Shown: positions 27,115 through 60,510, counted from the first letter of the stretch. The stretch: 64,000 nt of DNA from Candidatus Nanoarchaeia archaeon (GCA_035290625.1 DATDTY010000051.1:4008-68007); one strand, 5' to 3'. Translations and numbers: made by a program. The notes: generated from the sequence alone by a model not told the origin.

Positions 27115-27215
27115 GGCTTCGGTGAAAATCAGTGCTGCCGCCTCTTTGCGAGGCTCTTAAGGGATAGTATGAGCTGAGTTGAGGGGGTTGCCCCATACGG
27201 GGCTTCACCGAAGCC
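27115..27215 (-). mobile_element. Internally deleted (101 bp) copy of the MITE family B element
   Basis: Termini GGCTTCGGTGAA...TTCACCGAAGCC (12-bp TIR). Its reverse complement matches the 3' third of the 60306-60510 copy (gaagccccgtatggg..caaccccctcaactcag..gagcctcgcaaagaggcggcagcactgattttcacc). Confidence 0.6.
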
Positions 27216-27261
27216 CAAAAACAAAACATATAAAAACAGGAGCAATCAGCCAGCTCAAGAG

Positions 27262-27795
27262 GTGGCTTTTATGAAACAGAATATCGCAGTCATGGTGTTT
27301 TTCTCAATTATGGCCTTGGCTATTGCTGGGTGCAGCGAGCCTGCAGCAGTCATGCAGCCGCCAAGCGTAGGCCCAATGCCAGGAAATGCTCCATCAGGAG
27401 AAGATGATGGAACTCCGGTATCCTCAAACATGCCTGCGATTCCCGGGGATGATGTTCCTGAGATGATTGTTGTGCCAGATGGAGAGGCTATGCAGGATTT
27501 GCAGGACATGCCTCAAGCCCCACTTAAAGAGTTCACAATGACTGCGCGCCAATGGGAATTCAGCCCAAGTGAAATTCGCGTGAATAAAGGCGATCGCGTG
27601 CGCATCAGCCTTACGAGCGAAGATGTGACCCACGGATTCAGGCTTTCTGAGTTCGGTGTTGATGAAAGGCTTCCTCCTGGACAAGAGATTATTGTTGAGT
27701 TCGTGGCAGACAAAGCAGGGACATTTCCATTCTCCTGCTCAGTGCCCTGCGGCTCAGGCCATGGAAGCATGACAGGAACGCTCATCGTTGAATAG
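27262..27795 (+). CDS. Cupredoxin-fold lipoprotein with CuA-type (COX2-like) copper site
   Basis: Signal peptide with lipobox-like LAIAGC, then the H-x(n)-C-x3-C-G-x-G-H-x2-M pattern (HGF...FSCSVPCGSGHGSM), as in CuA centres. Confidence 0.6.
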   Translation: MAFMKQNIAVMVFFSIMALAIAGCSEPAAVMQPPSVGPMPGNAPSGEDDGTPVSSNMPAIPGDDVPEMIVVPDGEAMQDLQDMPQAPLKEFTMTARQWEFSPSEIRVNKGDRVRISLTSEDVTHGFRLSEFGVDERLPPGQEIIVEFVADKAGTFPFSCSVPCGSGHGSMTGTLIVE

Positions 27796-27840
27796 AACCC
27801 TGATTTTGGTTGATTTCCGAGTTGTTTTCACCAGAGCCCG

Positions 27841-29019
27841 CTACCCGATCCATCTTGCCTTGAGTTCTGCATACTTCTTTTTCTTTATTGCAACCCGTAT
27901 CTCAGCGGTGAGGTTAAGAAAGAAGGAGACATTATGGTGGCTGAGAAGCGTAAATGCCAGCAGCTCTTTTGCATTGAAGAGATGGTTGATATATGCCCGT
28001 GAATAGAGCTTGCAGACACGGCATGGGCAATCAGAATCAATAGGGGCGGGGTCTTTCTTGAACGCTGCTGCCTTGAGCCTGACCCTGAATTTATTTCTCA
28101 TAGTGCCAAGGGGCGGCCGGACATAGGCATACCCGCATCTGGCTAGCCTTGTAGGGCTTACACAGTCAAAGAGGTCTATCCCCCGATCTACTGCCTCAAA
28201 GATGTCTTCAACAACACCTATGCCAAGGAGATGCCTCGGCTTTTCTTCCGGCAGCTCCTCCACAACCCAGTCAAGGATGTTATGCATGTCCTTCTTCGTC
28301 TTTCCCAGAGAGCCCCCTATGGCAATTGCGTCAAATGGCTGTGATGCGATGAATCTTGCAGACTGTTTCCTGAGGTCTTTCCAGTGGGAGCCCTGAACAA
28401 TGCCGGCCAAAGCCTGGCCAGAGGTATGGGCTGCAAGGGATTCCAAGGCCCACCTGTTGGTCCGTTCAAGGCTTTTCTTCACATAGGCTTTATCGCTGAG
28501 AGGAGACGTGCATTCATCCAGGGCAAGGATCATGTCTGCTCCCAGTTTTTCCTGCACCTCAATAGACTTCTTCGGAGTAAGAAACTGCCTTGAATTATCA
28601 TAGATTGACCGGAAATGGACGCCTTTCTCAGCTACCACTGCCAGCGGCTTTCCGGGCTTGAGCTGCTCATTCTTCCTTGGCTTGTACATCTTTGTTGTGC
28701 CATGCTCTTTTCCCAAGCCAAGAGAGAATGCCTGGAAGCCTCCGCTGTCTGTCACCAGGGGCTTTTTCCAGTTCATGAACTTGTTTAGCCCACCCAGCTC
28801 CTCAATGACATCTGCTCCTGGCTTCAGCATGAGATGGTACGTATTGCAGATCAGCATTTGGGCCTGAAGGCGGTCCAAAGGCACAGCCTTGACGGTTGCA
28901 TTGGTTGCAACAGGCATCAGTTCAGGAGTCTGCACGTTTCCATGCTTGAGCCTGAGGATTCCTATTCTCGCCATCCCGTCTTTGGCAAGCACCCGGAATT
29001 GCAATCTTCCCATTTGCAA
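27841..29019 (-). CDS. tgt: tRNA-guanine transglycosylase (queuine/archaeosine TGT family, short form without PUA)
   Basis: N-terminal LQFRVLAKDGMARIG..GNVQTPELMPVAT, and a zinc site DSDCPCRVC...H near the C-terminus. Confidence 0.85.
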   Translation of the reverse strand: MQMGRLQFRVLAKDGMARIGILRLKHGNVQTPELMPVATNATVKAVPLDRLQAQMLICNTYHLMLKPGADVIEELGGLNKFMNWKKPLVTDSGGFQAFSLGLGKEHGTTKMYKPRKNEQLKPGKPLAVVAEKGVHFRSIYDNSRQFLTPKKSIEVQEKLGADMILALDECTSPLSDKAYVKKSLERTNRWALESLAAHTSGQALAGIVQGSHWKDLRKQSARFIASQPFDAIAIGGSLGKTKKDMHNILDWVVEELPEEKPRHLLGIGVVEDIFEAVDRGIDLFDCVSPTRLARCGYAYVRPPLGTMRNKFRVRLKAAAFKKDPAPIDSDCPCRVCKLYSRAYINHLFNAKELLAFTLLSHHNVSFFLNLTAEIRVAIKKKKYAELKARWIG

Positions 29020-29058
29020 CAGAAAGAGTTAAGAATCATATAATACTTTGGAATTTCC

Positions 29059-30318
29059 TTGGAATCTATCGAGATCAGTCCAGGCTTCCGCAGGGCGCTC
29101 AGCCTTATTGAAGAGGGCAGCTCAGTGTTCATCACCGGAAAGGCGGGCACCGGGAAATCAACCCTGCTTGGGCATTTCAGGGACACGACAAGGAAGAAGA
29201 TTGCTGTCCTGGCTCCTACAGGAGTAGCTGCAGTCAATGTTGCAGGCCAGACCATCCATTCTTTCTTCAGATTCCCGCCCAGAATCCTGAATCCTGCTGA
29301 TATCAAGCTGCGCTCAGGCAGGATATTCAAACAGCTTGAGGCCCTCGTGATTGATGAGGTTTCCATGGTAAGCGCAAACCTGATGGATGCCATTGATGCT
29401 GCATTGCGGAAGGCAAGGCACAGCAGGGAACTCTTCGGAGGCGTGCAGCTCATCCTTTTCGGAGACCTGTACCAGCTCCCCCCGATAGTCCCGATGACAG
29501 AGAAAAGATATGGCTCTCCCTATTTTTTCAGCTCTGAGGCCATACGCAGGCTTCCTTTGCAGATCGTTGAATTAACCAAGGTTTATCGGCAGAAGGATCA
29601 CCAGTTCATTTCGTTTCTTGATGCAGTCAGGAAAGGAGCGGTTGATAATGCCCATATGGATATGATCAATGCGAGAGTCACGGAGCAGATTCCTGAGGGA
29701 AGCATCATGCTTACGACAACAAATGCTTCTGCCCATGCAAGAAACCAGGCAGAGCTGAGAAAGCTGCCTGGGCCGGAAGCCAGCTATGAGGCAGAGCTTG
29801 ATGGCAATATCTCACCCAGTGATCTGCCTGTGGACTTTGTTCTGCAGTTGAAGAAAGGAAGCAGGGTGATGTTTCTGAAGAATGATCCTGGGAAGAGGTG
29901 GTACAATGGGACGCTTGGCACAGTTGCTGATCTTGGCAAGGATTGGGTTGATGTGAAGACTGACGATGGAATAGCGACAGTTGGAAAAGAGACGTGGGAG
30001 AAGATCCACTACCAGTACGATGCAAAAGAGGACAGGATAACTGCTGCTGTGACAGGGAAGCTCCTCCAGATACCCTTGCGGCTTGCCTGGGCAGTGACCA
30101 TCCATAAGAGCCAGAGCCAGACACTTGACAATGTCTATCTTGATTTTTCTCCGGGAGTCTGGGAATACGGCCAGGCCTATGTTGCGTTGAGCAGATGTCG
30201 GACGCTTGAGGGAATCTCCCTTGGGCATAAGCTGTATGCCTCGCACATCAAAACCGATCCTCGGATCAGGCAGTTCATGGCGAGGCAAAGCGGGCTCACA
30301 GAGTTCTGGGGGGAGTAG
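29059..30318 (+). CDS. PIF1/RecD-like SF1 helicase (short form)
   Basis: Walker A GKAGTGKST, DEVSMV (Walker B), LFGDLYQLPPI, and C-terminal AVTIHKSQSQTLD (SF1 motifs V and VI). Confidence 0.7.
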   Translation: MESIEISPGFRRALSLIEEGSSVFITGKAGTGKSTLLGHFRDTTRKKIAVLAPTGVAAVNVAGQTIHSFFRFPPRILNPADIKLRSGRIFKQLEALVIDEVSMVSANLMDAIDAALRKARHSRELFGGVQLILFGDLYQLPPIVPMTEKRYGSPYFFSSEAIRRLPLQIVELTKVYRQKDHQFISFLDAVRKGAVDNAHMDMINARVTEQIPEGSIMLTTTNASAHARNQAELRKLPGPEASYEAELDGNISPSDLPVDFVLQLKKGSRVMFLKNDPGKRWYNGTLGTVADLGKDWVDVKTDDGIATVGKETWEKIHYQYDAKEDRITAAVTGKLLQIPLRLAWAVTIHKSQSQTLDNVYLDFSPGVWEYGQAYVALSRCRTLEGISLGHKLYASHIKTDPRIRQFMARQSGLTEFWGE

Positions 30319-30371
30319 GCGTAGAGGGGGTTTAAAGCAAGGTAAGCTCAATGCCGCTCCGCCGCCAACCC

Positions 30372-30824
30372 CTAGTTTGATTGATTGGCTAAGTACCCTT
30401 TCCAGCGGGCTTCCAATTGGACGCATTCCCTTTTAAACGCAGCCAGTTTTTGCCCTTTAAAGAGCAGGCTGGACCTCCTGATGTCCTCCCTGACTCTTCC
30501 TAAATGAGGAAGTTCCCCATCCCATCTGTAGAATTCCTCGATTGCCTGAACCAGCTTGCTTGGATCTTCTGCTTCCTTTGGCCCATCATAATCACTTTGA
30601 GTAGGAGTGAAGCTAAAGTAACCTTCATGAGCCCAGGCATAAATCTGCCCTCCAGATACCAGTCCTCTGTCGGTTTCATAGCTCCATCCAAAGATCGGGA
30701 CAGCCTGGATGCCGTCCTCAAACTGCATAGGCATTCCTGTGATATAGGGCTTCCAATGAGCTTTTCCCATGGCCGAGAGGTGCCAGTAAGCCATATAAAG
30801 ATTTGTTTCTGCTTCGGCGAAAAC
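30372..30824 (-). CDS. Hypothetical protein (about 150 aa)
   Basis: The ORF 30372-30995 overlaps the polB 3' end. An internal Met start is preferred. No motif recognised. Confidence 0.3.
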   Translation of the reverse strand, partial: VFAEAETNLYMAYWHLSAMGKAHWKPYITGMPMQFEDGIQAVPIFGWSYETDRGLVSGGQIYAWAHEGYFSFTPTQSDYDGPKEAEDPSKLVQAIEEFYRWDGELPHLGRVREDIRRSSLLFKGQKLAAFKRECVQLEARWKGYLANQSN

Positions 30825-30843
30825 CATCTGTCCAACAGCGGAT

Positions 30844-33285
30844 TCACACAAACCACGCATCCAGTTTCTTCTGGTCTTTTGGAGCAACAAGGTTTTCTCT
30901 GGAATAGCCGAGGACTTCAAAGATCTTGTCCACAGCAGGGACGACCTGGTTATGAATATAGTAATCTGCATCGTACTCGCCTTCCTGCACTTCATCAGGA
31001 AGCTTGACCCTTTCCCTCACCTTTTCAGAGCCTGGCGTGATGATAAATTTTATCAGGGATCCCAGCGCTATTGTCTGGCCGCGCTGCTGCATGCGCCTTG
31101 CTGCTGCGACATGAGGGCCAATTGCCTCATAGCTAGCCATCTCCTTCTGGAGCCTGGTGTACATAATGACTTTTTCACAAGGAACCTTCCTTTCCCTGAG
31201 CTGCCTGATGACAGCCTGGGCGCAATTGAAAGCCTTTTCAGGATTCTGCTCCTTGAGGATGATATTCAGGACCTCAATCTGCGTTTCTTTTGCGACTGCA
31301 GACCAGTTTCTCCGCACAGTCTCAAAACCCCTGATCTTGATCTCTCTTTTTTCAGACAGGAGCGCGTACTTCTTCTTTGCCCCATACGGGCCAAGTTTTG
31401 CAGACACAAAGATGCCTGCAGGGTAATGGCCTTCATACTCGAGCTCCATCAGGCCAGGCAGGTCCCGGTTGATTTCAGCAACAAAGTCAGTTGCTTTTTT
31501 GAGCGGATTTTCTTTGAGAAGGAAGAATACGCTATCAGTGTCTGAATAGATCACCTCAAAGCCTTTTGCCTGCGCTCCATCAATAACCTTATGGATGTAG
31601 AATCTGGCAAGCGCGGTTGTTGAAGAGGCTGACTCCAAGCTGTACCATCTGCTCATGTAGAACCCTAAATAACCGTAGAAGGAGTTTCCTAACAATTTTA
31701 AGGCGTTGGAGCGCGCTTTCAAGAATTCGTCCTGGGATTCCCTGAGGATCTCCTTGATGCGCATCCTCCGTGTGATCAGCTCTTCGATCAGAAGCGGAAT
31801 AAATCCCTTCTGCTTTTCGCAGAACCACCACTCTTTGCCCTCTAACGGAACTTTCTTTGCAGACAAGGAGCAGCAGGTGCAGTTGAATGTCGCAGGAGAG
31901 ATGTTATGCGAGGAGATAATGGAAGGATACAGGCTGCGGTAGTCATACACCATGATGTCCTTGTAGAGCCCGGGCTTTGGCTGGAAGACAAACGCGCCTT
32001 GGTAGGATTTCGCGAGGCGCTCCTTTGATTGCTGGGAAGAAGGCTTGTTGGGAGCAAGCTGGTTATGAGCTTTTGCTTCCTTCAGGAGATACCATTCAAC
32101 GAGCTGGGAGAAGCCCATCCTGTTGACTTCGTATAAGGTCAGGCCAACAATCTTGACCATCTCGACAATTGTTGGAAGGTTTTTTACTGCTAACTGGTAG
32201 GTGAGGAAGGCATCATGAAGGTTGTAGGTGCAGAAGCGCTCCAGCTCTTCGGGGTTATTGTCCCATATGGCATAGAGATTGTCAAGATCCACTTCCTGCT
32301 TCCTGATGCCAAGCATCTCCTCTGCAATCGCATCAAGGCCATAGGTTTCTGTGTCAAGGCTTCTTCCGATGATTTTGCTTATGAATCTGAAGACGTCGAA
32401 ATGAGGGATTCCAGCGATGTATGCTTTGATTGTCATGCCTGAAGAAATCTTGAGAGGGCTATTGTCCATTCCAATATCCAGATTCACCTTATTGATTTCA
32501 GCCCTTGTTTTTATGTATGGAAGGTCAAAGCCGTCTGAGTAATAGCCTGTGAGGATGTCAGGATTCTGCTCTTTTATAATCTGGACAAACCTCTCGAGCA
32601 AGGATTTCTCTGAGTCAAGGAATTCGATATACGTATTCTGGGTGGAGAATCTCTTCCAGGTCAGCACTTTCTTGTACTCCTTTCCGTGAAGCGCGATCAT
32701 CAGGATAGGATTCTTGTTCATGTCCATCTGCTTGCCTTCAGGATTATACGTTTCTATGTCCAGGCTGAGGATGTTCGGGTCAGCTAAGGTCTGTGGGTCT
32801 TCAGAAGGCTTAATCTTTTCTGCTTTGAAGATGTTGTTTTCCGTCTTTCCTTCAGCAGTGCAGGCAGTCATAGGAACAAGAGAGGTATCGATCATGTAGC
32901 GGTTTACAAAGAGGATATCATATTCATGTATTGATTCAATGATATCCCATACCTTGACTGCCTCTCTCAGGACAGGAACATCCCTGGGAAGGTTTGTGTA
33001 TGCTTTAATTGCCTCAACCTCTTTTCCATTGAGATTTTTCTTACGGATCTCAGTACGGCTTATCTCTGAGACTTCTGCGTTGTTCTGGATCTTCAGTTTT
33101 GTCAGCTTTTCCTGTACATTGTCAAGCTGGCCTGGCTTGGGGATAATCCAGAAATAAGGCCGGAAGGTGTCGTCTTCAATGATAAGTCTCTTTCCATCCA
33201 ATGTTCTTGCAAACAGAACGATAATAGGCTTGTTCTCTGCCACTCGGTAGGTGATGTCCAGGAGGTAGAAATCTATGGCTGGCAT
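30844..33285 (-). CDS. polB: DNA polymerase, family B (with 3'-5' exonuclease)
   Basis: Exo I LSLDIETYN, Pol A DYRSLYPSII, Pol C IYSDTDSVFF, KxxxNSFYG. 813 aa. Confidence 0.9.
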   Translation of the reverse strand: MPAIDFYLLDITYRVAENKPIIVLFARTLDGKRLIIEDDTFRPYFWIIPKPGQLDNVQEKLTKLKIQNNAEVSEISRTEIRKKNLNGKEVEAIKAYTNLPRDVPVLREAVKVWDIIESIHEYDILFVNRYMIDTSLVPMTACTAEGKTENNIFKAEKIKPSEDPQTLADPNILSLDIETYNPEGKQMDMNKNPILMIALHGKEYKKVLTWKRFSTQNTYIEFLDSEKSLLERFVQIIKEQNPDILTGYYSDGFDLPYIKTRAEINKVNLDIGMDNSPLKISSGMTIKAYIAGIPHFDVFRFISKIIGRSLDTETYGLDAIAEEMLGIRKQEVDLDNLYAIWDNNPEELERFCTYNLHDAFLTYQLAVKNLPTIVEMVKIVGLTLYEVNRMGFSQLVEWYLLKEAKAHNQLAPNKPSSQQSKERLAKSYQGAFVFQPKPGLYKDIMVYDYRSLYPSIISSHNISPATFNCTCCSLSAKKVPLEGKEWWFCEKQKGFIPLLIEELITRRMRIKEILRESQDEFLKARSNALKLLGNSFYGYLGFYMSRWYSLESASSTTALARFYIHKVIDGAQAKGFEVIYSDTDSVFFLLKENPLKKATDFVAEINRDLPGLMELEYEGHYPAGIFVSAKLGPYGAKKKYALLSEKREIKIRGFETVRRNWSAVAKETQIEVLNIILKEQNPEKAFNCAQAVIRQLRERKVPCEKVIMYTRLQKEMASYEAIGPHVAAARRMQQRGQTIALGSLIKFIITPGSEKVRERVKLPDEVQEGEYDADYYIHNQVVPAVDKIFEVLGYSRENLVAPKDQKKLDAWFV

Positions 33286-35022: not shown

Positions 35023-35142
35023 TCTAGGGGGTTGATCAAAATTATGTTTTTTCTGATCATCACATCAGAATAGCATAAAGAATACCATAAGCAATTGTTT
35101 TTTCAGCTACTGCAAAAACATAAATTATATTAATCAGTTGGA

Positions 35143-35892
35143 GTGCTAAAGTTAACGATGGTGAAGCAATGGAGCATATTCCTCAACAGTGTCTTTTTTG
35201 TGCTTGGATTTAGTGTGATTTTCTCGTTGGTTGGAGTGCTGCTGCAGAGCATATTAAGCGATGTTTCGTATGAAGCACAGATCTGGCTTGGCAGGGTTGG
35301 CGGGCTGCTGATTATTTTCTTTGGGCTCTATCTTTTGGGCTTAATCAGGATCCCTTTTTTGGAGAGGGAGCACAAACTCCATGTCAAGAAGAGATTCAGA
35401 AGCTCGTATATCACCTCATTTGTATTCGGGGCTGCCTTTGCAGTGGGCTGGACTCCTTGCGTCGGAGCTGTTCTAGGAGCAATACTGTCTTTTGCTGCAA
35501 CCAACCCGTCAATAGCATTTTTTTTGCTTTTAGCGTACAGCCTTGGGTTGGGAATTCCTTTTTTGGTTGTTGGCCTGTTTACGACGCAGATTTCAGTCTG
35601 GCTGCAGAAGGAGCATTCCTGGCTGAAATGGGTGAATATGGTGTTTGGGGTTATCCTTATTTTATTGGGGATACTGGTGTTTACAAATCAGCTCAGCAGG
35701 ATTGCTTCCCTGCAGTTTGCAAGCGATATCCTGATCAGATTTAATCAGGCAGGGATTGGGTTTAGCGGAGAAGGTGTTGGAATCGGGATTGCTTTCTTGG
35801 CAGGCCTTGTTTCGTTTTTAAGCCCATGCATCCTTCCCCTGATTCCTGCATTCCTGGCGTATCTGGGAAGCACGGTAAAGAGGGAAGGATGA
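35143..35892 (+). CDS. ccdA: CcdA/DsbD-family transmembrane thiol-disulfide electron transporter
   Basis: Six TM helices. Conserved Cys in GWTPCVGAVLG and FLSPCILPLIPA. Confidence 0.75.
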   Translation: MLKLTMVKQWSIFLNSVFFVLGFSVIFSLVGVLLQSILSDVSYEAQIWLGRVGGLLIIFFGLYLLGLIRIPFLEREHKLHVKKRFRSSYITSFVFGAAFAVGWTPCVGAVLGAILSFAATNPSIAFFLLLAYSLGLGIPFLVVGLFTTQISVWLQKEHSWLKWVNMVFGVILILLGILVFTNQLSRIASLQFASDILIRFNQAGIGFSGEGVGIGIAFLAGLVSFLSPCILPLIPAFLAYLGSTVKREG

Positions 35893-37013
35893 AAAAGAAC
35901 CATGTCCTGGTTATCGTGGTAATCCTTATCATAGCTGCCATCGCCTATCTGGAGAGCGCCAGCCCAAAGATCCAGGAGGTTGAGGTTAAGGCAGCCCCTC
36001 GTGAGTATAAGGTATTAGAAGAGGTGTTGGCTGAAAAATCACAGGCATACAAAGCTGCGCCTGAATTAGCAGGCATTTCCGGGCATATCAACACAGACGG
36101 GAATATCAGCATCGGAGGCCTGAAGGGAAAAGTCGTTCTGGTCGATTTCTGGACCTATACCTGCATCAACTGCATCAGGACGCTTCCGTATCTCAAGATG
36201 TGGGATGAGAAATACAGGAATGAGGGGCTCGTCATTATCGGTGTTCATACGCCTGAGTTTGAGTTTGAGAAAGAATACGGAAATGTGTTAAATGCCGTTG
36301 AGGAGCATGGGATTCAGTATCCTGTTGTCCAGGATAATGATTATGCAACCTGGAGGGCATTCCAGAACAGGTTTTGGCCAAGAAAATACCTGATTGACAT
36401 TGACGGGTTTATTGTATATGACCACATTGGAGAAGGAGCCTATAAAGAAACTGAGGAAAAGATCCAGGATCTTCTTAAAGAGAGGATGGAAAAAGAGGGT
36501 GTTGCGAAGGAGCTTCCTGAATCTGCAGGAGAGCTTCCAGAAGCTGTTAAGGTAACAGGGAGGGTTGGAACTCCTGAGATTTATTTAGGCTCTGGCTTTT
36601 ACAGGGGAAACTTCGGAAACAAGGAAGGACTGGCTGTCTCTGGGCCTGTCGAGTATACACTGCCTGAGGAGCTGCAGCACAATACCGCCTATTTTGAGGG
36701 AACTTGGGTTACAGAAAATGATGCATCAAGGCTTGTGAGCGAAACTGGAAAGATTGTGCTTCCCTATGATGCAAAGGTGGTTAATATTGTCGCAGGAGCG
36801 ATGAATGAGAGCGAGATTGCCGTATTTGTGGATGGCAGGCCTGAGGATAAGGAATCAAAAGGAGCAGACATAGAGCTTGTTAATGGCAAGCCAATTGGCA
36901 GGATACAGGATCACCGCTTGTACAGCCTTGTGGAGTATCAGTATGGGCAGCATGTTGTCGAGATTGAGGTGAAAGGAAAAGGATTTATGATTTACACCTT
37001 CACGTTCGGATAG
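35889..37013 (+). CDS. TlpA/ResA-like thioredoxin-fold oxidoreductase (CINC active site) with extra C-terminal domain
   Basis: ATGA overlap with ccdA. N-terminal TM anchor, then WTYTCINCIRTLPYL (CxxC thioredoxin motif), then an approximately 180-aa domain of unknown function. Confidence 0.7.
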   Translation: MKKNHVLVIVVILIIAAIAYLESASPKIQEVEVKAAPREYKVLEEVLAEKSQAYKAAPELAGISGHINTDGNISIGGLKGKVVLVDFWTYTCINCIRTLPYLKMWDEKYRNEGLVIIGVHTPEFEFEKEYGNVLNAVEEHGIQYPVVQDNDYATWRAFQNRFWPRKYLIDIDGFIVYDHIGEGAYKETEEKIQDLLKERMEKEGVAKELPESAGELPEAVKVTGRVGTPEIYLGSGFYRGNFGNKEGLAVSGPVEYTLPEELQHNTAYFEGTWVTENDASRLVSETGKIVLPYDAKVVNIVAGAMNESEIAVFVDGRPEDKESKGADIELVNGKPIGRIQDHRLYSLVEYQYGQHVVEIEVKGKGFMIYTFTFG

Positions 37014-37292
37014 CTCTGTAGAAAATCTCGTTTTGCTCGGGCAGCATCAGGTTCGCCTCGCATAGCCTTAAGTTCAAAGCGACATATCCCCGCAACCTTT
37101 TTCCGCTCGCTACGCTTGCGCAAAAAGCTTGACCAGAAAAGAGTGGGTTACTGCGTAACCCACAAAGGGCGGTTCGGAGGGCTTCATGCCCTCCTTAAGC
37201 ACTTTTGGTCGAACTTTTGGTAAAAGGTCGTGGGACACCCCCCTTGTCGCTGCTAACTTCTTTGTTTCCAAGGCTCACATAGGATGCTGCCC

Positions 37293-37937
37293 TTATTTTC
37301 CACAGAGCCCGTTCGGATAGGATTGATAGAATTCTGAGCAGAGCTTTATCGCAAGGCTGCTCTCCCTGGACTGGAGGCACAAAAGCCTGAGATTCCTGAG
37401 CAATGCGATTCTCTGGACAAAATAGATCAGTTCCCGCCGTGTCAGGCCTGCTCCGCCAGCAACTCTCTCATGGATGAAGACAGCAGCATGAGCATACTTG
37501 TTTGTGGCAGCAAGGATATTGTCTGAAACCTCCTGCACCCCTTCAACAGAAATCTCTTTCATCGCATAATTCTTAAGCCTGTTTTCCCTGAAGAAATTGT
37601 ATCCGAGGAGGTCATAGGAATGGCTGCCAGCATACACAACTGCCTCCTTCTGGATCCCTCCCTGTTTTATTGCCTGGAGGAGGCAGGGGAACAAGGACTC
37701 CTTTGCTGCAAGGTTGGAGTCAAACACAATCACAGCGCAATTCCCAAGGCCTGCGCAGAGATCAAGGATTTCTGCAATGCTGTCATCGTCTCCCAGAAGC
37801 ACAGCACAACGACGGCCTGAGGCAAGTTCCTGGCTGATGTGATCGCTGTTGAGATCCTCGATTTCCAGGGAAACAGAACAGCCTGATTCGTTGAGTATCG
37901 TTTTTGCAGGCAGAGGATTCTCAGTAAAGATTTTCAT
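37293..37937 (-). CDS. Hypothetical protein (214 aa)
   Basis: Intact ORF. The C-terminal codons run into the structured G-rich intergenic repeat. No family assigned. Confidence 0.35.
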   Translation of the reverse strand: MKIFTENPLPAKTILNESGCSVSLEIEDLNSDHISQELASGRRCAVLLGDDDSIAEILDLCAGLGNCAVIVFDSNLAAKESLFPCLLQAIKQGGIQKEAVVYAGSHSYDLLGYNFFRENRLKNYAMKEISVEGVQEVSDNILAATNKYAHAAVFIHERVAGGAGLTRRELIYFVQRIALLRNLRLLCLQSRESSLAIKLCSEFYQSYPNGLCGK

Positions 37938-48761: not shown

Positions 48762-48835
48762 GGGCCAATAGCTCAACCTGGTAGAGTGCCGCATTGGCTA
48801 TGCGGAGGTTTCGGGTTCGAATCCCGATTGGTCCA
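48762..48835 (+). tRNA. tRNA-Ala (anticodon GGC)
   Basis: Acceptor GGGCCAA/TTGGTCC has the G3:U70 Ala identity pair, with discriminator A. D-arm GCTC-AACCTGGTA-GAGT. Anticodon stem CCGCA/TGCGG, loop TTGGCTA. T-arm TCGGG-TTCGAAT-CCCGA. No encoded CCA. Confidence 0.7.
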
Positions 48836-48839: not shown

Positions 48840-49044
48840 GGCTGCGGTGAAAATCTCGCGGTGGCTTGCGAGTGAGCTCGTTCTCACTCGCTCACCAGCC
48901 ACCGGCTGCCGCCAAGTTCGCAATTTGCGTTCTTTGTCCTCATAATCGACATTCGTCCCCGATGGGGCATCCCCCTCGAAGTCGATGCCCTGATTCCAGT
49001 TGTGCTGCTCACAAAGGGCGGCAGCATTGATTTTCACCGCAGCC
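48840..49044 (+). mobile_element. MITE-like non-coding element, family B (205 bp, perfect 16-bp TIR GGCTGCGGTGAAAATC)
   Basis: Termini ggctgcggtgaaaatc...gattttcaccgcagcc. An internal 9-bp-stem hairpin gcgagtgag-ctcgtt-ctcactcgc. A second full copy lies at 60306-60510 and a deleted copy at 27115-27215. It sits 4 bp after tRNA-Ala and 3 bp before the ATG of the HD gene. Confidence 0.7.
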
Positions 49045-49047
49045 TCC

Positions 49048-50076
49048 ATGACCGCAACAGTTAAAAAACATGGAAGAATCCCTTTTTTAATGGATCCGCT
49101 GCTTATTGAAGACCCAGTCTACGGAAAAAAGGAATTGCGGAATGAAACCGTTCTTGCCATTATCAAAACCCCTGAATTCCAGAGGCTGAAGGGCATCAAC
49201 CAGTACGGAACCGGGAACTATATGACCCCCAAGATGCCTACTACGAGGTATGAGCACAGCATTGGGGTGTATCTGCTCCTGCAGAAACTCGGGGCATCCT
49301 TCGAGGAGCAGATTGCAGGGCTACTGCATGACATCAGCCATACAGCTTTCTCCCATGTCGTTGATTTCCTGAGGAATGAGAGTATGAAGCAGGACTTCCA
49401 TGAGCTGCATTTGAAACGGGTTCTGGAGAGTTCAGAGATCAAGGAGATTCTGGGAAAAGAGGGATTCCGCATCGACAGGATTACTGATCATTCCGGATAC
49501 AGCCTCCTGGATTCGGATGACCAGAGCCTGAATGCAGACCGGCTTGACTATGGGATGCGGGACGGGCTGTTGTTCGGCACCTTTCGGAAGGATAGGATTG
49601 ATAAGGTCCTAGGTTCTCTCTTGGTTAAGGATGGGCAGATTGTGCTGGCAGATGAGGAAGCTGCTTCTGCCGCTGCATGGGGCTATTTTCACACCTCAAC
49701 GCAGTTCTGGAGCAATCCGCTGTTCGGAGGAAGCTATATGGCTTTGGTTGCTGCTTTGAGGGCAGCGCTGGATAAAGGAGTTATCAGGGAAGAGGACCTT
49801 TTTGGGACTGATGAGGAAGTGATGGGGAAGCTGAAGGCTTCAGAGGATGCCAGGATCATGCATTATCTCGGTTTCATAGACTGGGTCAACCTTAGCGAGC
49901 AGGAACACGGAGAGTTTATGATCAAGACCAAGGCAAGGTATATTGACCCGCTTTTTTGGAAGAAGGGCAAGCTCATCAGGTATTCAGAGGCTGACGAGGT
50001 GTTTAAGGAAAGGGTTGAGGCCTGGGTAAGGGAGATGAAAAACGGCCATCGGGTCGGCATAAATACAAAACTTTAA
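49048..50076 (+). CDS. HD-domain phosphohydrolase
   Basis: YEHSIGVY...LLHDISHTAFSH (H...HD...H metal ligands), DRLDYGMRD. The start is MTATVKK immediately after the MITE; the ORF-track start at 49000 lies inside the MITE. Confidence 0.7.
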   Translation: MTATVKKHGRIPFLMDPLLIEDPVYGKKELRNETVLAIIKTPEFQRLKGINQYGTGNYMTPKMPTTRYEHSIGVYLLLQKLGASFEEQIAGLLHDISHTAFSHVVDFLRNESMKQDFHELHLKRVLESSEIKEILGKEGFRIDRITDHSGYSLLDSDDQSLNADRLDYGMRDGLLFGTFRKDRIDKVLGSLLVKDGQIVLADEEAASAAAWGYFHTSTQFWSNPLFGGSYMALVAALRAALDKGVIREEDLFGTDEEVMGKLKASEDARIMHYLGFIDWVNLSEQEHGEFMIKTKARYIDPLFWKKGKLIRYSEADEVFKERVEAWVREMKNGHRVGINTKL

Positions 50077-51159: not shown

Positions 51160-51312
51160 TGCCGCTGTAGCTCAGCCTGGTTAGAGCGCTACATGCTTGT
51201 TTTCGCAAGTCAGCGAGGCTCATATGTTTGAGCGATGATCCGAAAGGAGATGACATACTCAGGCGATAACTGGGTGACGTAGAGGTCAGGGGCTCAAATC
51301 CCCTCAGCGGCA
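51160..51312 (+). tRNA. Intron-containing tRNA (about 153 nt; roughly 78-nt insertion in the anticodon region; anticodon unresolved, CUU/Lys possible)
   Basis: Acceptor GCCGCTG/CAGCGGC with discriminator A. Canonical D-arm TAGCTCAGCCTGGTTAGAGCG (A14, G18G19, A21). T-arm AGGGG-CTCAAAT-CCCCT with C48, G53:C61. Between position 26 and CGTAG (39-43) lies a structured insert containing the CTTG-TTTTCG-CAAG hairpin. A31/C39 would mispair if the intron sits at 37/38. Confidence 0.6.
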
Positions 51313-51429: not shown

Positions 51430-51672
51430 TGGCTCTGTAGAAAGTCCGGCATCAGTTCTGCGAGCTTCTTCGGCCACATAAGCAGTGCTGACGGAGGGTT
51501 GCCCCAATCAAAACGCCGTCTGGCGTTTTGGTGTGCCAAAAGAGCGTAGCTCTTTTTAGCACCTTCGGGGGTGTCAGCATGCACCGATAGAGTCACAAGC
51601 GAGCCGGCGGCTAGCGAGCAAGCTCACCTTGCTCGCTTGCAAGCCACTGCCGACTGACTTTCTACAGAGCCA
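51430..51672 (+). mobile_element. MITE-like non-coding element, family A (243 bp, 17-bp TIR TGGCTCTGTAGAAAGTC)
   Basis: Termini tggctctgtagaaagtc...gactttctacagagcca. About 90% identical across its length to 61356-61602, including the hairpins caaaacgcc-gtct-ggcgttttg and gcgagcaag-ctcacc-ttgctcgc. No ORF of likely significance. Confidence 0.65.
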
Positions 51673-51746
51673 CTACGACCATTCACGTATAGAATGAATG
51701 CGTCGGCCGGTAGTGAGACTTTGGTCTCGGACCGGCCTAACATGAA

Positions 51747-51829
51747 TGCGTCGGCCGGGATTTGAACCCGGATCAACGGCTTTCTCCGATCCATGGAAGG
51801 CCGCAATCATGCCATTAGACCACCGACGC
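51747..51829 (-). tRNA. tRNA-Gly (anticodon UCC) with 12-nt intron at canonical 37/38 position
   Basis: Minus-strand read GCGTCGG-TG-GTCT-AATGGCA-TGAT-T-GCGGC-CTTCCA[TGGATCGGAGAA]A-GCCGT-TGAT-CCGGG-TTCAAAT-CCCGG-CCGACGC-A. Canonical T-arm, U33, A37, anticodon TCC. The 13:22 pair is mismatched. Confidence 0.55.
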
Positions 51830-51928
51830 ATACTCTCAATTGTTCTGGCATTGTTTATAAAGATTATGATGACGGAATCGCATCCATGCTCCACAAACTT
51901 TTTAAACACTCAAACATTCCTTCAGATC

Positions 51929-55704: not shown

Positions 55705-55728
55705 ATCATTCTGGAACCAGGTTATTCA

Positions 55729-57630
55729 ATGGCAGAAATCATAAAGGAGATTCTCAAGCATCTCCCCGATGGCAAGATTAGCTCCGCAGAATTCGAGGGA
55801 GCGAACATTGTCCTCTACACCAAAGACAAGGAGTTCTTCTTAGATAATAATGGCGTGATTAAGAAGATTGTGAATGATATCAAGAAGCGGGTTGAGCTCC
55901 GGCCAGACCCCAGCATCGCCATGGACCAGGAGCAGGCAGAACAGGAGATCCGAAAGAGCATCCCCAAGGAGGCCGGAGTCGGCAGCATCATTTTTGATCC
56001 CCAGCGGAGCATCGTTATTGTTGAGACTGAGAAGCCTGGCCTCGCCATCGGGAAGCAGGGCAGCATCCTGAGGGAGATAAGGGAAAAGACAATGTGGATA
56101 CCCTTAATCAGGAGGACTCCTGCGATTAAATCCCAGCTCATTGAGAATATCAGGGCGGTCCTCTACCAGAACTCAGACTATAGGAGAAAATTCCTTGACA
56201 GGATCGGCCATAGAGTCTATGATGGATGGATGCGCGGAAAAAAACAGGAATGGGTGCGCTTTTCAACGCTGGGCGCAGGCCGCCAGGTTGGCAGGTCATG
56301 CTTTCTGCTCCAGACGCCTGAATCCCGGATTATGATCGATTGCGGCATCGATCCTGCAAAGGAGTACGGATCAGAGGAAGCCTATCCTCATCTCGAAGCG
56401 CCTGAGTTCAAATTAGATGAGATTGATGCGATTATCATCAGCCATGCCCACTTGGACCATTGCGGCCTTTTGCCCTACCTCTTCAAGCTTGGCTACAAAG
56501 GCCCGGTATACTGCACTCCCCCCACAAGGGATATCATGGCCTTGCTGCAGCTCGATATGGTCAAAATTGCAAAGAACGATGGCAAGGACCCCTTATTCAC
56601 CTCAGAAGAGATTAAGGAGATGGTCAAGCATACGATTACTGTAGAGTTTGATGAAGTGACAGATATCACGCCAGATGTGCGCCTGACACTCTATAACTCG
56701 GGCCACATCCTGGGAAGCGCAATGGTCCATCTCCATATCGGCAATGGGCTTCACAACTTCCTCTACACAGGCGACATGAAGTATGGCCACACGGATCTCC
56801 TTGACCCTGCGGTTACAATTTTCCCCCGCCTGGAAACCCTCATGATCGAATCAACCTATGGAGGGAAAGACAATATTCCTGCCAGCAAGGAACAGTCAGA
56901 TGAGGAGCTGGTCACAATCATCAAGAGCACAATTGGCCAGGGAGGAAAACTTCTGATCCCTGTCTTGGGTGTGGGAAGGGCGCAGGAGGTGCTCCTGATT
57001 ATCGAACGGCTTGTTCGGGAAGGCCAGCTCGAGAAGATTCCAGTCTATGTGGACGGCATGGTCTGGGACGTAACTGCGATTCACACTGCCTATCCTGAAT
57101 ATCTCAATAACAACATCAGAAAGCTTATCTTCCATAAGGATGCCAATCCGTTCCTGGCAGAAATCTTCCATAGGGTGGGATCGCAGAAGGAGAGGGCACA
57201 GGTGATTGAAGAGCAGGGAGCATGCGTCATCCTTGCAACCTCAGGTATGCTCACCGGCGGCCCATCAGTGGAATACTTGAGGAGGCTGGGGGACAACCCA
57301 AAGAACGCTTTGGTGTTTGTCTCGTATCAGGGAGAGGGCTCTCTCGGCAGGCGCATCCAGAGAGGCGAGCGCGAGATCGTCTTCTCAAACGGAATGAAGA
57401 AAGAGATCCTGCCTGTAAGGCTAAGCATCTACACCATTGAAGGGTTCTCAGGCCATTCCAACAGGAGGGAGCTCATGAACTTCATCTATAAGTGCACGCC
57501 CAGGCCAAAGAAGATCCTGGTGAACCATGGTGAGGCAAGCAGATGCCTTGACTTGGCAAGCTCTATCCACAAGCAATACCGTGTTGAGACCGCTGCTCCG
57601 AAGAATCTGGAGATTATCAGGCTGAAGTAA
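55729..57630 (+). CDS. aCPSF1 (KH-KH plus metallo-beta-lactamase/beta-CASP RNase)
   Basis: Two N-terminal KH-like segments, then HAHLDHCG (HxHxDH), the beta-CASP region and a C-terminal RMBL motif HGE. 633 aa. Confidence 0.85.
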   Translation: MAEIIKEILKHLPDGKISSAEFEGANIVLYTKDKEFFLDNNGVIKKIVNDIKKRVELRPDPSIAMDQEQAEQEIRKSIPKEAGVGSIIFDPQRSIVIVETEKPGLAIGKQGSILREIREKTMWIPLIRRTPAIKSQLIENIRAVLYQNSDYRRKFLDRIGHRVYDGWMRGKKQEWVRFSTLGAGRQVGRSCFLLQTPESRIMIDCGIDPAKEYGSEEAYPHLEAPEFKLDEIDAIIISHAHLDHCGLLPYLFKLGYKGPVYCTPPTRDIMALLQLDMVKIAKNDGKDPLFTSEEIKEMVKHTITVEFDEVTDITPDVRLTLYNSGHILGSAMVHLHIGNGLHNFLYTGDMKYGHTDLLDPAVTIFPRLETLMIESTYGGKDNIPASKEQSDEELVTIIKSTIGQGGKLLIPVLGVGRAQEVLLIIERLVREGQLEKIPVYVDGMVWDVTAIHTAYPEYLNNNIRKLIFHKDANPFLAEIFHRVGSQKERAQVIEEQGACVILATSGMLTGGPSVEYLRRLGDNPKNALVFVSYQGEGSLGRRIQRGEREIVFSNGMKKEILPVRLSIYTIEGFSGHSNRRELMNFIYKCTPRPKKILVNHGEASRCLDLASSIHKQYRVETAAPKNLEIIRLK

Positions 57631-57671
57631 GAGTATACACCAAATAAGGTCTGATTTTTTCTTTCAAAATT

Positions 57672-59033
57672 TCACTTTCTCATCATAAAAAGCTTCAGCA
57701 CGAGAAGCCCGGCAGCTGTAAGAATGACGAGATTTGCAAGGATAAGAAGAGCCACCTTAATGCCAGGGCTAATGCTAGAGATTTCCTCAGCTGCTGGCTC
57801 TGCAGGCTCTAGAGGTTCTCCGGGCTCTGGGAAGAGTTCTTCTTCAGGTTGTGCCTCAGGCTGTTCAGGTTCAGCCACTGGCTGCACCTCTGGCGCTGCA
57901 GGCGCGCACATCACCTCAAGGAACACACGCCCCAGGTTTGACAGCTGGTCAGTATCATAATAAGATCTGACCTCAATGTTGTGATTGCCAGCAGGAGCAT
58001 TGGCAGGCAGGGCAATCCTCCGCGTGATATGGCTGGAATAATCCTCAGTTTCAGGATCATCAAGGTATATCGGCCCCTCACTGAGCACGATCCCCAAGGC
58101 CGGATTTTGGATTGTGTAGGCTGCGCTCTCCTCCTCTCCCTGGCCGTAATTCAATAAATCAAAGCTAAGGGTTACAGATTCTCCGCATGAGGCTTTGACA
58201 GGATCGATCTGCAGATTCTGGACAAGGATATCATGATTCTCCCTGCGTATATCAAGTTCAAGCTCGAGTTCAGCAGAGTGGATCCTCCCATTCTCATCCT
58301 CGCCTTCTGCCTCAATATGCACAACATAGGTATCTTCATCAATAAGGCCTGGAAGCGTGAACCTGAAGGTTTCAAGCCTGGTCCTGTCTGCAGGAAGCTC
58401 AAAGGTGTTGGACTCCTTTTCCAAGTCCTCTCCATCATTGATACCCTCAAGTCTGACAGTGATGAATGCGTCCTCCAGCTTCGTCTTTTCAATAGTTGTA
58501 AAAGTGTTCTTGACCCGAACATCAAAGGTTATCGTTGAGCCCGGCTTTGCAGTCTTCGGGATCGCTGTTGCATTCTGCAGGTCTTTGTTTTCCTCATTGT
58601 CGATCGTAACATCCAGATCATCAAGAATGAGCCTTCCGATGATCGTGGCTTTAAGGGCGAATGTTGAGCTTATTTGAGTGCCGTCTGTCTGGTTTGCTGT
58701 TACGATGACATTTCCCAGCGTCCTTGGGCCCTGCACCTGGCTGAACGGAATTGTTGCATTTACAGCTATTGTTGCAGAAGCTCCTGCAGCCAATGAGCTG
58801 AGATTTGCCGGGCTGAAAGTAACGGAAAAAGGAGCATCACTCGATAAGGAAAGATTCACAAGCTGCTGATCCCCGGAATTCCGAATCTCGAATTGGGCTG
58901 ACCCTGTCGTATTAATCCCGATAGCCCCAAAATTCACCTCAGAAGGAACAGCAAGCTGCCCTGCTGCGCTAACCATACCTGCAAGCAAGACAAACCAAAG
59001 CAGGTGCATAAGGTGCTTCATGAGGCTAACCAC
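57672..59033 (-). CDS. Cell-surface protein with signal peptide, low-complexity PE-rich linker and C-terminal TM anchor
   Basis: N-terminal hydrophobic signal, Ig-like repetitive body, PEQPEAQPEEELFPEPGEPLEPAEP linker, then SPGIKVALLILANLVILTAAGLLVLKLFMMRK (PGF-CTERM-like anchor with PGI). Confidence 0.5.
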   Translation of the reverse strand: MVSLMKHLMHLLWFVLLAGMVSAAGQLAVPSEVNFGAIGINTTGSAQFEIRNSGDQQLVNLSLSSDAPFSVTFSPANLSSLAAGASATIAVNATIPFSQVQGPRTLGNVIVTANQTDGTQISSTFALKATIIGRLILDDLDVTIDNEENKDLQNATAIPKTAKPGSTITFDVRVKNTFTTIEKTKLEDAFITVRLEGINDGEDLEKESNTFELPADRTRLETFRFTLPGLIDEDTYVVHIEAEGEDENGRIHSAELELELDIRRENHDILVQNLQIDPVKASCGESVTLSFDLLNYGQGEEESAAYTIQNPALGIVLSEGPIYLDDPETEDYSSHITRRIALPANAPAGNHNIEVRSYYDTDQLSNLGRVFLEVMCAPAAPEVQPVAEPEQPEAQPEEELFPEPGEPLEPAEPAAEEISSISPGIKVALLILANLVILTAAGLLVLKLFMMRK

Positions 59034-59081
59034 AGAGGAGAGATGTGCCTATTTTTATTTAAATGTATCGGTGAATCTGCA

Positions 59082-60260
59082 TCAAAATCGGGGCTGCAGA
59101 CTTGCCAGGCTCTCCCTCAACTCAGAGTGCTTCAGGCCGTAGACCTGAAGAGGGATATGATGCAGATGGCTGTCTAAAGCCTGCCTGCACGCCATTGCCC
59201 CTTTTCTGACACCATGGCTATGGCCGGAAACAGCATCTGTAAACTGGATCACGAGGTCATTGCCAAGCCTCTGAACAAGACCGGGGATGTGAGAAGCTCC
59301 TACCCTGCAAGCAAGGCCCATGGAGCTCTTAACCCCGTGCCAGGGCTTGGCAAGGCTGCGTTCCTCAATAAGCCTCTTGTCAATCACGTCATGGACATGG
59401 ACAGAAGCATCAGCATTCATTGGTCCCGGCAGGGAGCCGATATGAACGATGTCTGCTCCCGCCAGCCTGCAGAGTTTTGCGCAGGCATGCGAGGACATAT
59501 GGGGCATCCTGACGCTTCGCTGCAGCTGGATAGCAACGGGAACATCAGCCTCACGAAGGTTCTGGAGTGAAGAAAAACCTGAAAGGTTGAGTACAACTGC
59601 CTCACAGCCAAGAGTATGGGCAAAATCTGCCCTCTTCACTGTCTCCGAACCCGTCACATTTGGCATATACATCTTATGCCCTCCGTTCAGCTGCTCAGCT
59701 TTTTTCTTTCTCCGATGCGTCTGAAAGACGCGTTCCTTGAAACGATTCGATGGAAGGTTTGTGAGGGAAGGGGCATCAGCAACGATATCCATCCCTGTCC
59801 ATGCCTCATAGGCATTCATGGAAAACTCATACGAAGACCCCTGCAGCAATGAAGCCTCAAGCAGGGCCTGGTTGGTCCCAATCAGTTTTCGGATTCCCTT
59901 CACGCCAAATCTTGGGCCCGGAAAGGATTTCACTAAAGTCCGCGGAAATTGCATATCAAGAAGCGTTGCCCTCTTTACAGAAGGAAGCTGCAGATGGCCA
60001 GTAAGGCTATGGCTGATCTGATCTGCGTTCCCCGGCTCAAAGAGATCAGCAGGATAGCGTATCAACGCAACCTGTCCCCCCTTGTCAAGGGATACCACCG
60101 CGGGAGCGTCTCCTCTAACAAATGCCTCCGGAGATACGCCAATGCTTGCAGCAGCAACATGCCTGCAGGCATCCTGGAATGAAACTGCCTGAGCAGGCTC
60201 GATTGCATACTCGGCAATGACGTCAGACTTGCTGAAACGTGTTGACAGGAACTGGAACAT
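59082..60260 (-). CDS. RuBisCO large-subunit-like protein (RLP) with substituted carbamylation-site lysine
   Basis: C-terminal blocks MPHMSSHACAKLCRLAGADIVHIG, WHGVKSSMGLACRVGASHIPGLV and QFTDAVSGHSHG parallel the RuBisCO H294/R295, H327/K334 and GGG loops. The segment aligning to GGLDFTKDDE reads GMDIVADAPS, so K201 and E204 appear replaced. Confidence 0.65.
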   Translation of the reverse strand: MFQFLSTRFSKSDVIAEYAIEPAQAVSFQDACRHVAAASIGVSPEAFVRGDAPAVVSLDKGGQVALIRYPADLFEPGNADQISHSLTGHLQLPSVKRATLLDMQFPRTLVKSFPGPRFGVKGIRKLIGTNQALLEASLLQGSSYEFSMNAYEAWTGMDIVADAPSLTNLPSNRFKERVFQTHRRKKKAEQLNGGHKMYMPNVTGSETVKRADFAHTLGCEAVVLNLSGFSSLQNLREADVPVAIQLQRSVRMPHMSSHACAKLCRLAGADIVHIGSLPGPMNADASVHVHDVIDKRLIEERSLAKPWHGVKSSMGLACRVGASHIPGLVQRLGNDLVIQFTDAVSGHSHGVRKGAMACRQALDSHLHHIPLQVYGLKHSELRESLASLQPRF

Positions 60261-60305
60261 GCATCCACTGATGCTGAGACGCTATTTAAAGGTTTTGGAA
60301 GCCGG

Positions 60306-60510
60306 GGCTGCGGTGAAAATCTTGCTTCGCAGCTGCCGCCAGTACTCAAAAATGCTGTTCATTTTTGGTCGCTCCTGCGGAGCATCTCGGCTTGTGTCGC
60401 CCTTCTGTATGCATCGTTGAAGCCCCGTATGGGACAACCCCCTCAACTCAGTCTATGGCAATCCTCAAGAGCCTCGCAAAGAGGCGGCAGCACTGATTTT
60501 CACCGCAGCC
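60306..60510 (+). mobile_element. MITE-like non-coding element, family B (205 bp, perfect 16-bp TIR GGCTGCGGTGAAAATC)
   Basis: Same termini and length as 48840-49044. The internal sequence is only partly shared (ggctgccgcc and gcagcac tgattttcaccgcagcc ends). Intergenic between two minus-strand genes. Confidence 0.7.

Follow-up and report, generated by a model that had tools for sequence, protein, structure and literature searches.

What are the short repeats with inverted ends that recur between the genes of a 64,000-nucleotide stretch of the Candidatus Nanoarchaeia archaeon contig DATDTY010000051.1 (positions 4008-68007; this whole stretch is here called the window), and have they moved? 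A first-pass annotation had read three of them as family B of MITEs (miniature inverted-repeat transposable elements), with two full copies (B1 and B2) and a shortened relative (B3), alongside a second family, A. We find that they are very probably nonautonomous DNA transposons of this kind, all belonging to one superfamily. The coordinates and sequences given for family B were correct throughout, and B1 and B2 are indeed both 205 bp long with perfect 16-bp terminal inverted repeats (TIRs). The TIR, GGCTGCGGTGAAAATC, occurs exactly at 48840, 49029 (minus strand), 60306, and 60495 (minus strand), making two inverted pairs that each span 205 nt; a further copy, at 27115, has one mismatch. At up to three mismatches there are five hits in the window against 0.63 expected, and none of 100 shuffles reached five, which places the motif far above chance.

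Movement is recorded in the flanks of the elements and at an empty site. Elements were found by searching for degenerate termini and with a profile built on the conserved half. When JGI metagenomes were scanned for exact matches to the B right end, 11 loci came up, 8 of which are new sites. Perfect 9-bp direct duplications flank five elements, namely, C and D in the window and L008a, L008b, and L013b elsewhere (Table 1), and matches at 6 or 7 of 9 positions are retained by B2, B3 (7/9; CAAAAAAAC and CAAAAACAA), A1, and L013a. Among 216 control 9-mers the mean match was 2.2/9, with 1.4% at 6/9 or more and none at 9/9. The flanks of B1 (GTCCATACC and TCCATGACC) look like the two halves of a 9-bp duplication that has acquired an indel of 1 nt, and they run into the 3' end of a tRNA-Ala gene (48762-48835); since the duplication takes in the last tRNA-Ala bases, the 3' end of the tRNA is preserved. 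In a relative whose neighboring DUF1189 protein is 87% identical (L173/L174), the B2 site is empty. A single CTGGTTTCC stands where the window has CTTGCTTCT, then B2, then CCGGCTTCC, and the distance from the DUF1189 stop codon to the RuBisCO start codon is 81 nt, compared to 268 nt in the window. The same relative carries a diverged element at the A2 site, ending in CTACTGAGCC; with that site filled and the B2 site empty, A2 is an old shared insertion and B2 a later one. Relatives in GTDB offered no usable orthologous empty sites, synteny being lost beyond proteasome-aCPSF1, and the closest relative by the HD gene (66%) has a different upstream context. The elements have moved by cut-and-paste or copy-and-paste transposition with a 9-bp staggered cut in the target, and with five perfect duplications and an empty B2 site the MITE interpretation of the first-pass annotation holds.

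It is scarcely credible that these repeats are not mobile DNA at all, but assembly artifacts, duplicated RNA genes, or chance palindromes. Assemblies do falter at them: contigs stop at 61360 (A2), where many assemblies break; contig L099 diverges from the window at 51671; and a 118-nt B1 "variant" in L102 was rejected once it proved to be a scaffold N-gap chimera with another copy. However, window proteins have identical counterparts on more than 20 Rifle groundwater metagenome contigs on which the elements are unchanged, and B2 was found in more than 20 independent assemblies. Because the same elements stand in the same contexts across these independent assemblies, the repeats are not assembly artifacts. 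The absence of any Rfam match to the elements and the failure of any shuffle to reach the observed TIR count also argue against a nonmobile origin, and the 9-bp duplications together with the empty B2 site refute it.

The host is an uncultured Woesearchaeote (a DPANN archaeon) from Rifle groundwater. The window encodes a proteasome, aCPSF1, Cbf5, FtsZ, a family B DNA polymerase, a form III-like RuBisCO, and intron-bearing tRNAs, and the closest relatives of its aCPSF1 among species genomes are Woesearchaeota, at no more than 72% identity. When 185,579 species genomes were scanned for exact matches to the B right end, none was found (the source genome was not among them). Viral contigs contained no paired ends, and their 17-mer and 16-mer matches were chance seeds without extended similarity.

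How are the differing copies related? The profile recovered 13 elements in Rifle contigs and eight in the window (B1, B2, B3, A1, A2, C, D, and E). The window copies share a backbone of ~95 nt that runs from the TIR through 3 nt, GYTGCCGCC, (T)TTTGCGAGGCTC, and ~25 variable nt to a core of GGGGG-TTG-CCCC-loop-GGGG. The opposite end is ordered AGCCGAGC, GGCGGCARC, hairpin, TIR. The two 9-mers form a second inverted pair, lying 3 nt from the TIR at one end and separated from it by a hairpin at the other. Judged by this shared architecture, A and B are subfamilies of one superfamily that also takes in C, D, E, and probably F. With 8 or 9 copies in 64 kb, the superfamily occupies ~2.8% of the window, or about 125 to 140 copies per Mb. 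Two further backbone matches lie in the 7.7 kb to the left (L167:1593-1674 and 4628-4696), such that a density of about one element per 6 to 8 kb continues outside the window. A distant Woesearchaeote, L095 (62% aCPSF1 identity), has two small elements (6592-6725 and ~8380-8479) with ends AGCTCTGTAGAAAATG and GGCTGTGCAGAAAAAG and core CCCCGCAGGGGCCAACCCCC, flanking SOD and dUTPase genes; this end type and G/C core therefore extend beyond the Rifle lineage.

What varies is a set of optional modules, all of them hairpins, present or absent at fixed points of the alignment. The hairpin beside the TIR is either a 7-nt GCGAAGC or a 44-nt module, the larger form being carried by B1, L013b, L008b, A1, and A2; an extra double-hairpin module occurs in B2, L011a, L014b, and L007b, and a different extra module in L008a. 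The first-pass annotation had placed a hairpin module in family B interiors generally, which is correct for B1 and wrong for B2, where that module is absent. Its suggestion of mosaics built from shared structured modules fared better, as A and B have the backbone in common and the B1 module recurs in L013b and, at 86%, inside L008b, an element with family-A ends. The interiors of B1 and B2 are only partly shared, as had been noted: the common parts are the ends, namely, the left 16 nt plus GCTGCCGCC and ~37 nt on the right at 92%, which include the second inverted pair (GCTGCCGCC and GGCGGCAGC), with little interior in common. Their equal length is a coincidence, given that they carry different optional modules. 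Over 100 nt, B3 (27115-27214) matches B2 60411-60510 at 87% when the latter is reverse-complemented, and this part of B2 is its 3' half and not, as first described, its 3' third. The B3 junction, GGCTTCGGTGAA|GCCCCG, can be explained by loss of the sequence between GGTGAA (TIR) and GTTGAA (interior), a short microhomology, and supports the earlier view of B3 as a deletion derivative of family B, putatively formed by this route.

Table 1. Elements of the superfamily and end sequences of its subfamilies. Strand refers to the core-forward orientation, in which the core is G-rich.
Feature	Position	Strand	Description
MITE B1, 205 bp	48840..49044	-	Perfect 16-bp TIRs; second inverted pair 48905-48913/49017-49025; 44-nt hairpin module 48860-48903; core CCCCGATGGGGCATCCCCC at 48957-48975
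MITE B2, 205 bp	60306..60510	-	Perfect 16-bp TIRs; flanks match 6/9; second inverted pair 60332-60340/60483-60491; GCTTCGC mini-hairpin 60324-60330; double-hairpin module; core 60423-60442
MITE B3, 101 bp	27115..27215	+	Putative deletion derivative; best profile hit (E = 8.5e-24); one end whole (TIR, second-pair arm 27134-27142, core 27183-27202), opposite TIR trimmed to 12 nt
MITE A1, 241 bp	51431..51671	+	TIR GGCTCTGTAGAAAGTC; superfamily backbone; hairpin module near 3' end; flanks match 6/9
MITE A2, 241 bp	61359..61599	+	TIR GGCTCAGYAGAAAGTC; 88% identity to A1
MITE C, 298 bp	37012..37309	-	TIRs AGCTCTGTAGAAAATC/GGCTCTGTGGAAAATA; perfect 9-bp duplication CGTTCGGAT (37003-37011, 37310-37318)
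MITE D, 165 bp	1501..1665	+	Profile E = 2.4e-14; right end GGCTCTGTCCTAAGTC (reverse complement); first 7 nt of left end degenerate; perfect 9-bp direct repeat GATTGGCTG (1492-1500, 1666-1674)
MITE E, 148 bp	23174..23321	+	TIR GGCTCTGCTGAAA; profile E = 6.6e-07; fold z = -4.1; backbone blocks TTTTTGCGAGGC, GAGGAGGGTTGGCTCCTTCGGAGG, and GCGAAGC (23294-23300)
F, diverged or hybrid copy (probable)	~17143..17310	-	Assigned by eye only; boundaries uncertain
L008a	L008:3585-3788		Perfect 9-bp duplication TTAACCTGC
L008b, A-type ends	L008:6626-6826		Perfect 9-bp duplication CATGGCTGC
L013b	L013:2796-2994		Perfect 9-bp duplication ATGCAGAAA
Subfamily end, B			GGCTNCGGTGAAAATC
Subfamily end, A			GGCTCWGTAGAAAGTC
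Subfamily end, C			GGCTCTGTRGAAAAT
Subfamily end, D			GGCTCTGTCCTAAGTC
Subfamily end, E			GGCTCTGCTGAAA
Subfamily end, L007b			GGCTCCATCCAAAAAA

Element C was not listed as an element in the first-pass annotation, which had reported G-rich fragments in three further intergenic regions as possible degraded copies. The 17-mer on which two of these reports were based, GGGACACCCCCCTTGTC, does occur at 37232-37248 and, as its reverse complement, at 1564-1580, but these positions lie in C and D, both complete elements with perfect duplications. The third stretch, "cccccctcag" at ~17200, falls within the diverged copy F, so the idea of degraded copies was partly right. The reverse complement of F reads GGCTCATTGAAAGGTTGCTCAC...GAGGGGGGGTCATCC, with GGCTGGGCTTAGTC at the opposite end, and the backbone profile did not report it at E ≤ 1. 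Across the elements lengths range from 101 to 298 bp with indels that are not multiples of three, and the only called open reading frame (ORF), of 83 aa in B1, matched only itself in a protein search.

The two ends of each element stay complementary although the subfamilies differ in sequence. Perfect 16-bp ends occur in B1, B2, A1, and L011b, and in L012, L013a, and L007b the ends pair along their whole length; complementarity reaches at least 14/16 in 13 of the 17 elements tabulated for their ends, and three of the remaining four were tabulated out of register. The tip GGCT is kept in 95% of sequences. At position 5 of the B type all four bases occur and both ends agree in five of eight copies (approximately p = 0.05 if the ends were independent), a match that is only suggestive. 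Diversification may have proceeded by changes at both ends together, giving rise to TIR subfamilies A to E, with palindromic modules gained and lost and a microhomology deletion yielding B3.

Which enzyme could have moved these elements? A DDE transposase supplied in trans would recognize the bipartite ends, and it is a tenable proposal, at somewhat under an even chance, that this enzyme is IS903-like (IS5 family). The IS903 group is favored by the 9-bp duplication in combination with a GGC-tipped TIR, GGCTnTGTnGAA. IS903 is an insertion sequence (IS) of 1057 bp with 18-bp ends (GGCTTTGTTGAATAAATC, taken from a plasmid record) that share the GGC(T) tip, G at positions 7 and 10, and 11 of the first 14 TIR positions of the A/C-type end (14/16 with a 2-nt gap), and IS903B likewise makes a 9-bp duplication (PMC13618097). 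Unlike IS903, the elements reside in a DPANN archaeon in which no IS903-like transposase was found, and each of their ends has two parts, of 16 bp and 9 bp, with an asymmetric hairpin bulge; at least five end variants exist.

Several observations weigh against MITEs mobilized in this way. No transposase or autonomous element came up in ~84 kb, covering the window and 10 kb on either side: transposase Pfam hits were absent both from the window ORFs and from genes called on overlapping contigs, among them 7.7 kb on the left and ~6 kb on the right. The family assignment draws on duplication length and a short TIR resemblance, and the ends of IS6100 and IS6 are equally similar. The TIRs come in five or more variants whose changes agree between the two ends, and interior blocks are as conserved as TIR positions 5 to 16; together this is more than the binding needs of one transposase would call for. 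The duplications are decayed or missing in several window copies (3/9 matches at both A2 and E, the latter keeping no duplication), and no presence/absence polymorphism was seen within the sampled population, in which current activity is not apparent. An IS encoding a transposase with matching TIRs, which the first-pass annotation had proposed looking for, was not found: neither ~100 kb of Rifle contigs nor 1.16 Mb of Woesearchaeota loci contained an autonomous element with matching ends, and tblastn with the IS903 transposase against the Rifle loci and the same 1.16 Mb gave nothing below E = 0.78. Two candidates were examined and rejected. A tblastn match beside an element in L008 (E = 3.7) is the gene for ribosomal protein S15, and the only TIR pair found 0.6 to 3 kb apart (L095, 1888 bp) consists of the two separate small elements around the SOD and dUTPase genes.

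It is nearly an even bet, then, that the elements are MITEs served by a different enzyme, be it archaeal and IS6-, IS256-, or IS1595-like, or one originating from a virus, a plasmid, or the host cell of what is probably an episymbiont. The lack of a transposase in the window or the examined flanks is consistent with such a source. The IS6100 end, GGCTCTGTTGCAAA, matches the A/C-type end at 11 to 12 of 14 positions (PMC10470526), and the IS6/IS26 consensus, GGTTCTGTTGCAAA, retains G1, G2, G7, and G10 (PMC6807381), bases also present in the A-, B-, C-, and E-type ends here, although these four occur in other IS families too (PMC6807381). Among archaeal elements, ISPfu5 has a listed duplication of 9 bp (PMC6807381). 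However, 8-bp duplications and cointegrates are typical of IS6 (PMC6807381), whereas all five perfect duplications here are 9 bp. An IS903-like transposase acting in trans may still account for the duplication length and the tip of the TIR together.

Why do the copies lie where they do? With gene starts called crudely, an element end lies 37 to 48 nt upstream of a start codon in 16 of 20 flanks. B2 sits between the DUF1189 stop codon (18 nt off) and the RuBisCO start codon (45 nt off); the right end of B1 is 45 nt upstream of the HD-gene ATG (49090), the left end of A2 is 44 nt upstream of the DUF1189 start codon, and the left end of D is 46 nt upstream of where the minus-strand gene that ends at 1454 starts. 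E fits between 21651-23162, whose stop codon it follows by 11 nt, and the SerRS gene, whose start codon comes ~42 nt after the end of E. TATA-like boxes (TTTAAATA, TTTTTATA) occur ~25 to 31 nt before ATG across the window, preceded by an AAACC-like TFB-recognition element (BRE), for example at 60261-60305, 61315-61358, and 49045-49089. This spacing implies promoters tight against the start codon and perhaps leaderless mRNAs. In 13 of 15 reconstructed targets the duplicated 9-mer lies 3 to 8 nt from a TATA-like box, and all four tRNA genes in the window have an element within ~120 nt of their 3' end; A1, for instance, lies between two convergent tRNA genes (51161-51312, plus strand; 51746-51830, minus strand). 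Copies thus persist only in the few dispensable nucleotides of this genome, that is, upstream of BRE/TATA, ~45 nt before start codons, and 3' of tRNA genes.

Active targeting of insertion to such "safe havens", meaning the upstream edge of TBP/TFB-bound promoters and the tRNA 3' flank, would account for both the constant distance from the TATA-like box and the presence of an element 3' of every window tRNA gene. It would also explain why A2 and D hug the promoter edge despite ~85 nt or more of free spacer and why larger element-free spacers exist. Against this, most pre-insertion spacers measure only 44 to 95 nt, so that selection alone forces the placement in most cases, and the unforced cases number only two to five. 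The crude gene-start calls likewise count against targeting, and C lies between convergent gene ends with no promoter nearby. We therefore regard active targeting as unlikely, though worth keeping in view.

Is the fold of the elements itself under selection? B1 and B2 fold as RNA with z-scores of -9.3 and -4.4 relative to shuffles, and across the elements z-scores range from -3.5 to -9.3 and are significant on both strands; folded as DNA, the shape is a rod with a three-way junction. The second pair (P2) is complementary at 9/9 positions in 11 of 17 elements and covaries (GCTGCC/GGCAGC, GTTGCC/GGCAAC, and GGGCAGCAT/ATGCTGCCC), and an RNAalifold consensus of seven diverse copies contains 35 pairs, eight of them with compensatory changes. 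Interior blocks are conserved at 0.82 to 0.84, compared to 0.78 for TIR positions 5 to 16 and 0.95 for the tip. Rfam returned only tRNAs above the gathering score, and under sensitive scanning no match to the elements did better than E = 0.014, which fell short of half the gathering score. Relative to neighboring transcription, six elements lie in the same orientation and four in the opposite one. With no orientation bias (6:4) and no Rfam match, a strand-specific RNA gene was rejected.

One could propose that the selected function is the single-stranded structure, comprising a closing stem (P1), a side hairpin, the second stem, and a core G/C switch, and that transposition only spreads it. 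The structure might act as RNA, punctuating or stabilizing transcripts between tightly packed genes as Correia, ERIC, and BOX elements do in bacteria, or as a DNA hairpin needed for mobilization. Compensatory changes hold P1 and P2 paired across subfamilies, the side position is always filled by a hairpin (the 44-nt module or GCGAAGC), modules that share a position keep their hairpins despite sequence differences, and the folds on both strands and interior blocks as conserved as the TIR point in the same direction. However, inverted repeats are complementary by construction, such that subfamily descent alone gives matched ends, and palindromic modules may arise as perfect palindromes. Neither the orientation of the elements relative to flanking transcription units nor Rfam, which holds no relative, speaks for it. 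On balance we consider selection for the structure rather improbable. A still bolder combination, which we regard as a long shot, would have the family defined by structure and not by end sequence (a three-way-junction rod of closing stem, GCGAAGC or large side hairpin, second stem, and G5/C4/G4 switch core, with ends drifting by paired changes) and also deliberately inserted at tRNA 3' flanks and along the upstream edge of archaeal core promoters. This would amount to a "safe-haven" strategy comparable to that of Ty or TRE elements, pursued in a DPANN genome of ~1 Mb with no transposase gene of its own. The reading we prefer remains that of a MITE superfamily spread by an enzyme acting in trans.

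The surroundings of individual copies yielded further observations. C supplies the stop codons of both convergent genes that it overlaps (35826-37013, plus strand, and 37293-37937, minus strand). The TAG of the former consists of the last T of the C duplication and the AG of the element tip (GG in other copies), and the latter ends ...GLCGK* within the right TIR. An 807-bp segment (16503-17309) directly following the intron-bearing tRNA at 16397-16490 is present in the window and L106 but not in strains L103/L104, and F occupies its right edge; the empty site in L103/L104 reads ...GGGTTTATTAT|CGGATAAGC. This segment was rejected as an autonomous IS, as it has neither a duplication nor matching ends and its 171-aa ORF (16618-17133) has no Pfam hit. 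Three of the four tRNA genes are overlong (16397-16490, 94 nt; 51161-51312, 152 nt; 51746-51830, 85 nt), in keeping with archaeal tRNAs that carry introns; only Rfam detected the 152-nt gene, which ARAGORN missed, and ARAGORN assigned the 94-nt gene a four-base anticodon. A 48-nt tandem repeat (51694-51758) duplicates the last 12 nt of tRNA-Trp (51746-51830, minus strand) plus 5 nt, with ATGAATGCGTCGGCCGG at 51694 and 51742, and scaffolds L003 and L102 have extra copies or N-gaps there; it looks like an attachment-site scar or a variable repeat. Just right of the window, a MJ0043_C-domain gene encodes, in one sample, 814 aa with an intein/LAGLIDADG insert (L170:912-3356) and, in other samples, 422 aa without it (L171:1412-2680), a presence/absence polymorphism of the intein. 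Contig L099 (1-3223) is 99.98% identical to the window through 51671, the final base of A1, and continues into unrelated genes (glycoside hydrolase, glycosyltransferase), either through recombination between family-A copies or through an assembly jump in the repeat.

The repeat family explains assembly breaks and misjoins in this organism. DPANN genomes are very small and gene dense, which makes a family covering nearly 3% of 64 kb worth attention, and one element adjoins the promoter of the form III RuBisCO gene. Its structure-preserving diversification, hairpin modules, and promoter-edge placement are the features of note. Shared and lineage-specific insertions could serve as markers of strain and lineage history, and the copies offer a clean data set on whether prokaryotic transposons target promoter edges and could reveal whether a MITE's fold is under selection. 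Should all of this fail to hold up, what remains is an ordinary selfish DNA family.

As a kind of element, a MITE is ordinary; this family is previously undescribed and unusually structured. We found no description of its anatomy, duplication length, or subfamilies in the literature, and searches by TIR strings returned only primers and IS6100. The BIMEs of E. coli likewise combine a fixed frame with variable structured modules. So do the BOX elements of pneumococcus, in which the frame carries a variable number of short structured modules (PMC10969869). Unlike the present elements, which have both, BOX and BIMEs are without clear duplications or transposon ends. The Correia elements of Neisseria and the ERIC elements of enterobacteria are similar in being 100 to 250 bp long, intergenic, and promoter adjacent, with TIRs, long stem-loops, and both full-length and internally deleted classes (PMC10969869). 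Correia elements differ in duplicating TA rather than 9 bp, and features of their own include bacterial promoters, IHF sites, and transcripts cut by RNase III. MITEs are well known in bacteria and in several archaea (PMC10969869), and those of Sulfolobus (SM1-SM4), Halobacterium, and Haloquadratum are, like the elements here, nonautonomous IS derivatives in archaeal intergenic DNA (PMC10969869), but the present family has no sequence relationship to described families. In a census of 8,220 archaeal genomes, "a Woesearchaea genome" was among the densest at 105 MITEs/Mb (PMC11602168), a figure to which the density in this window comes close.

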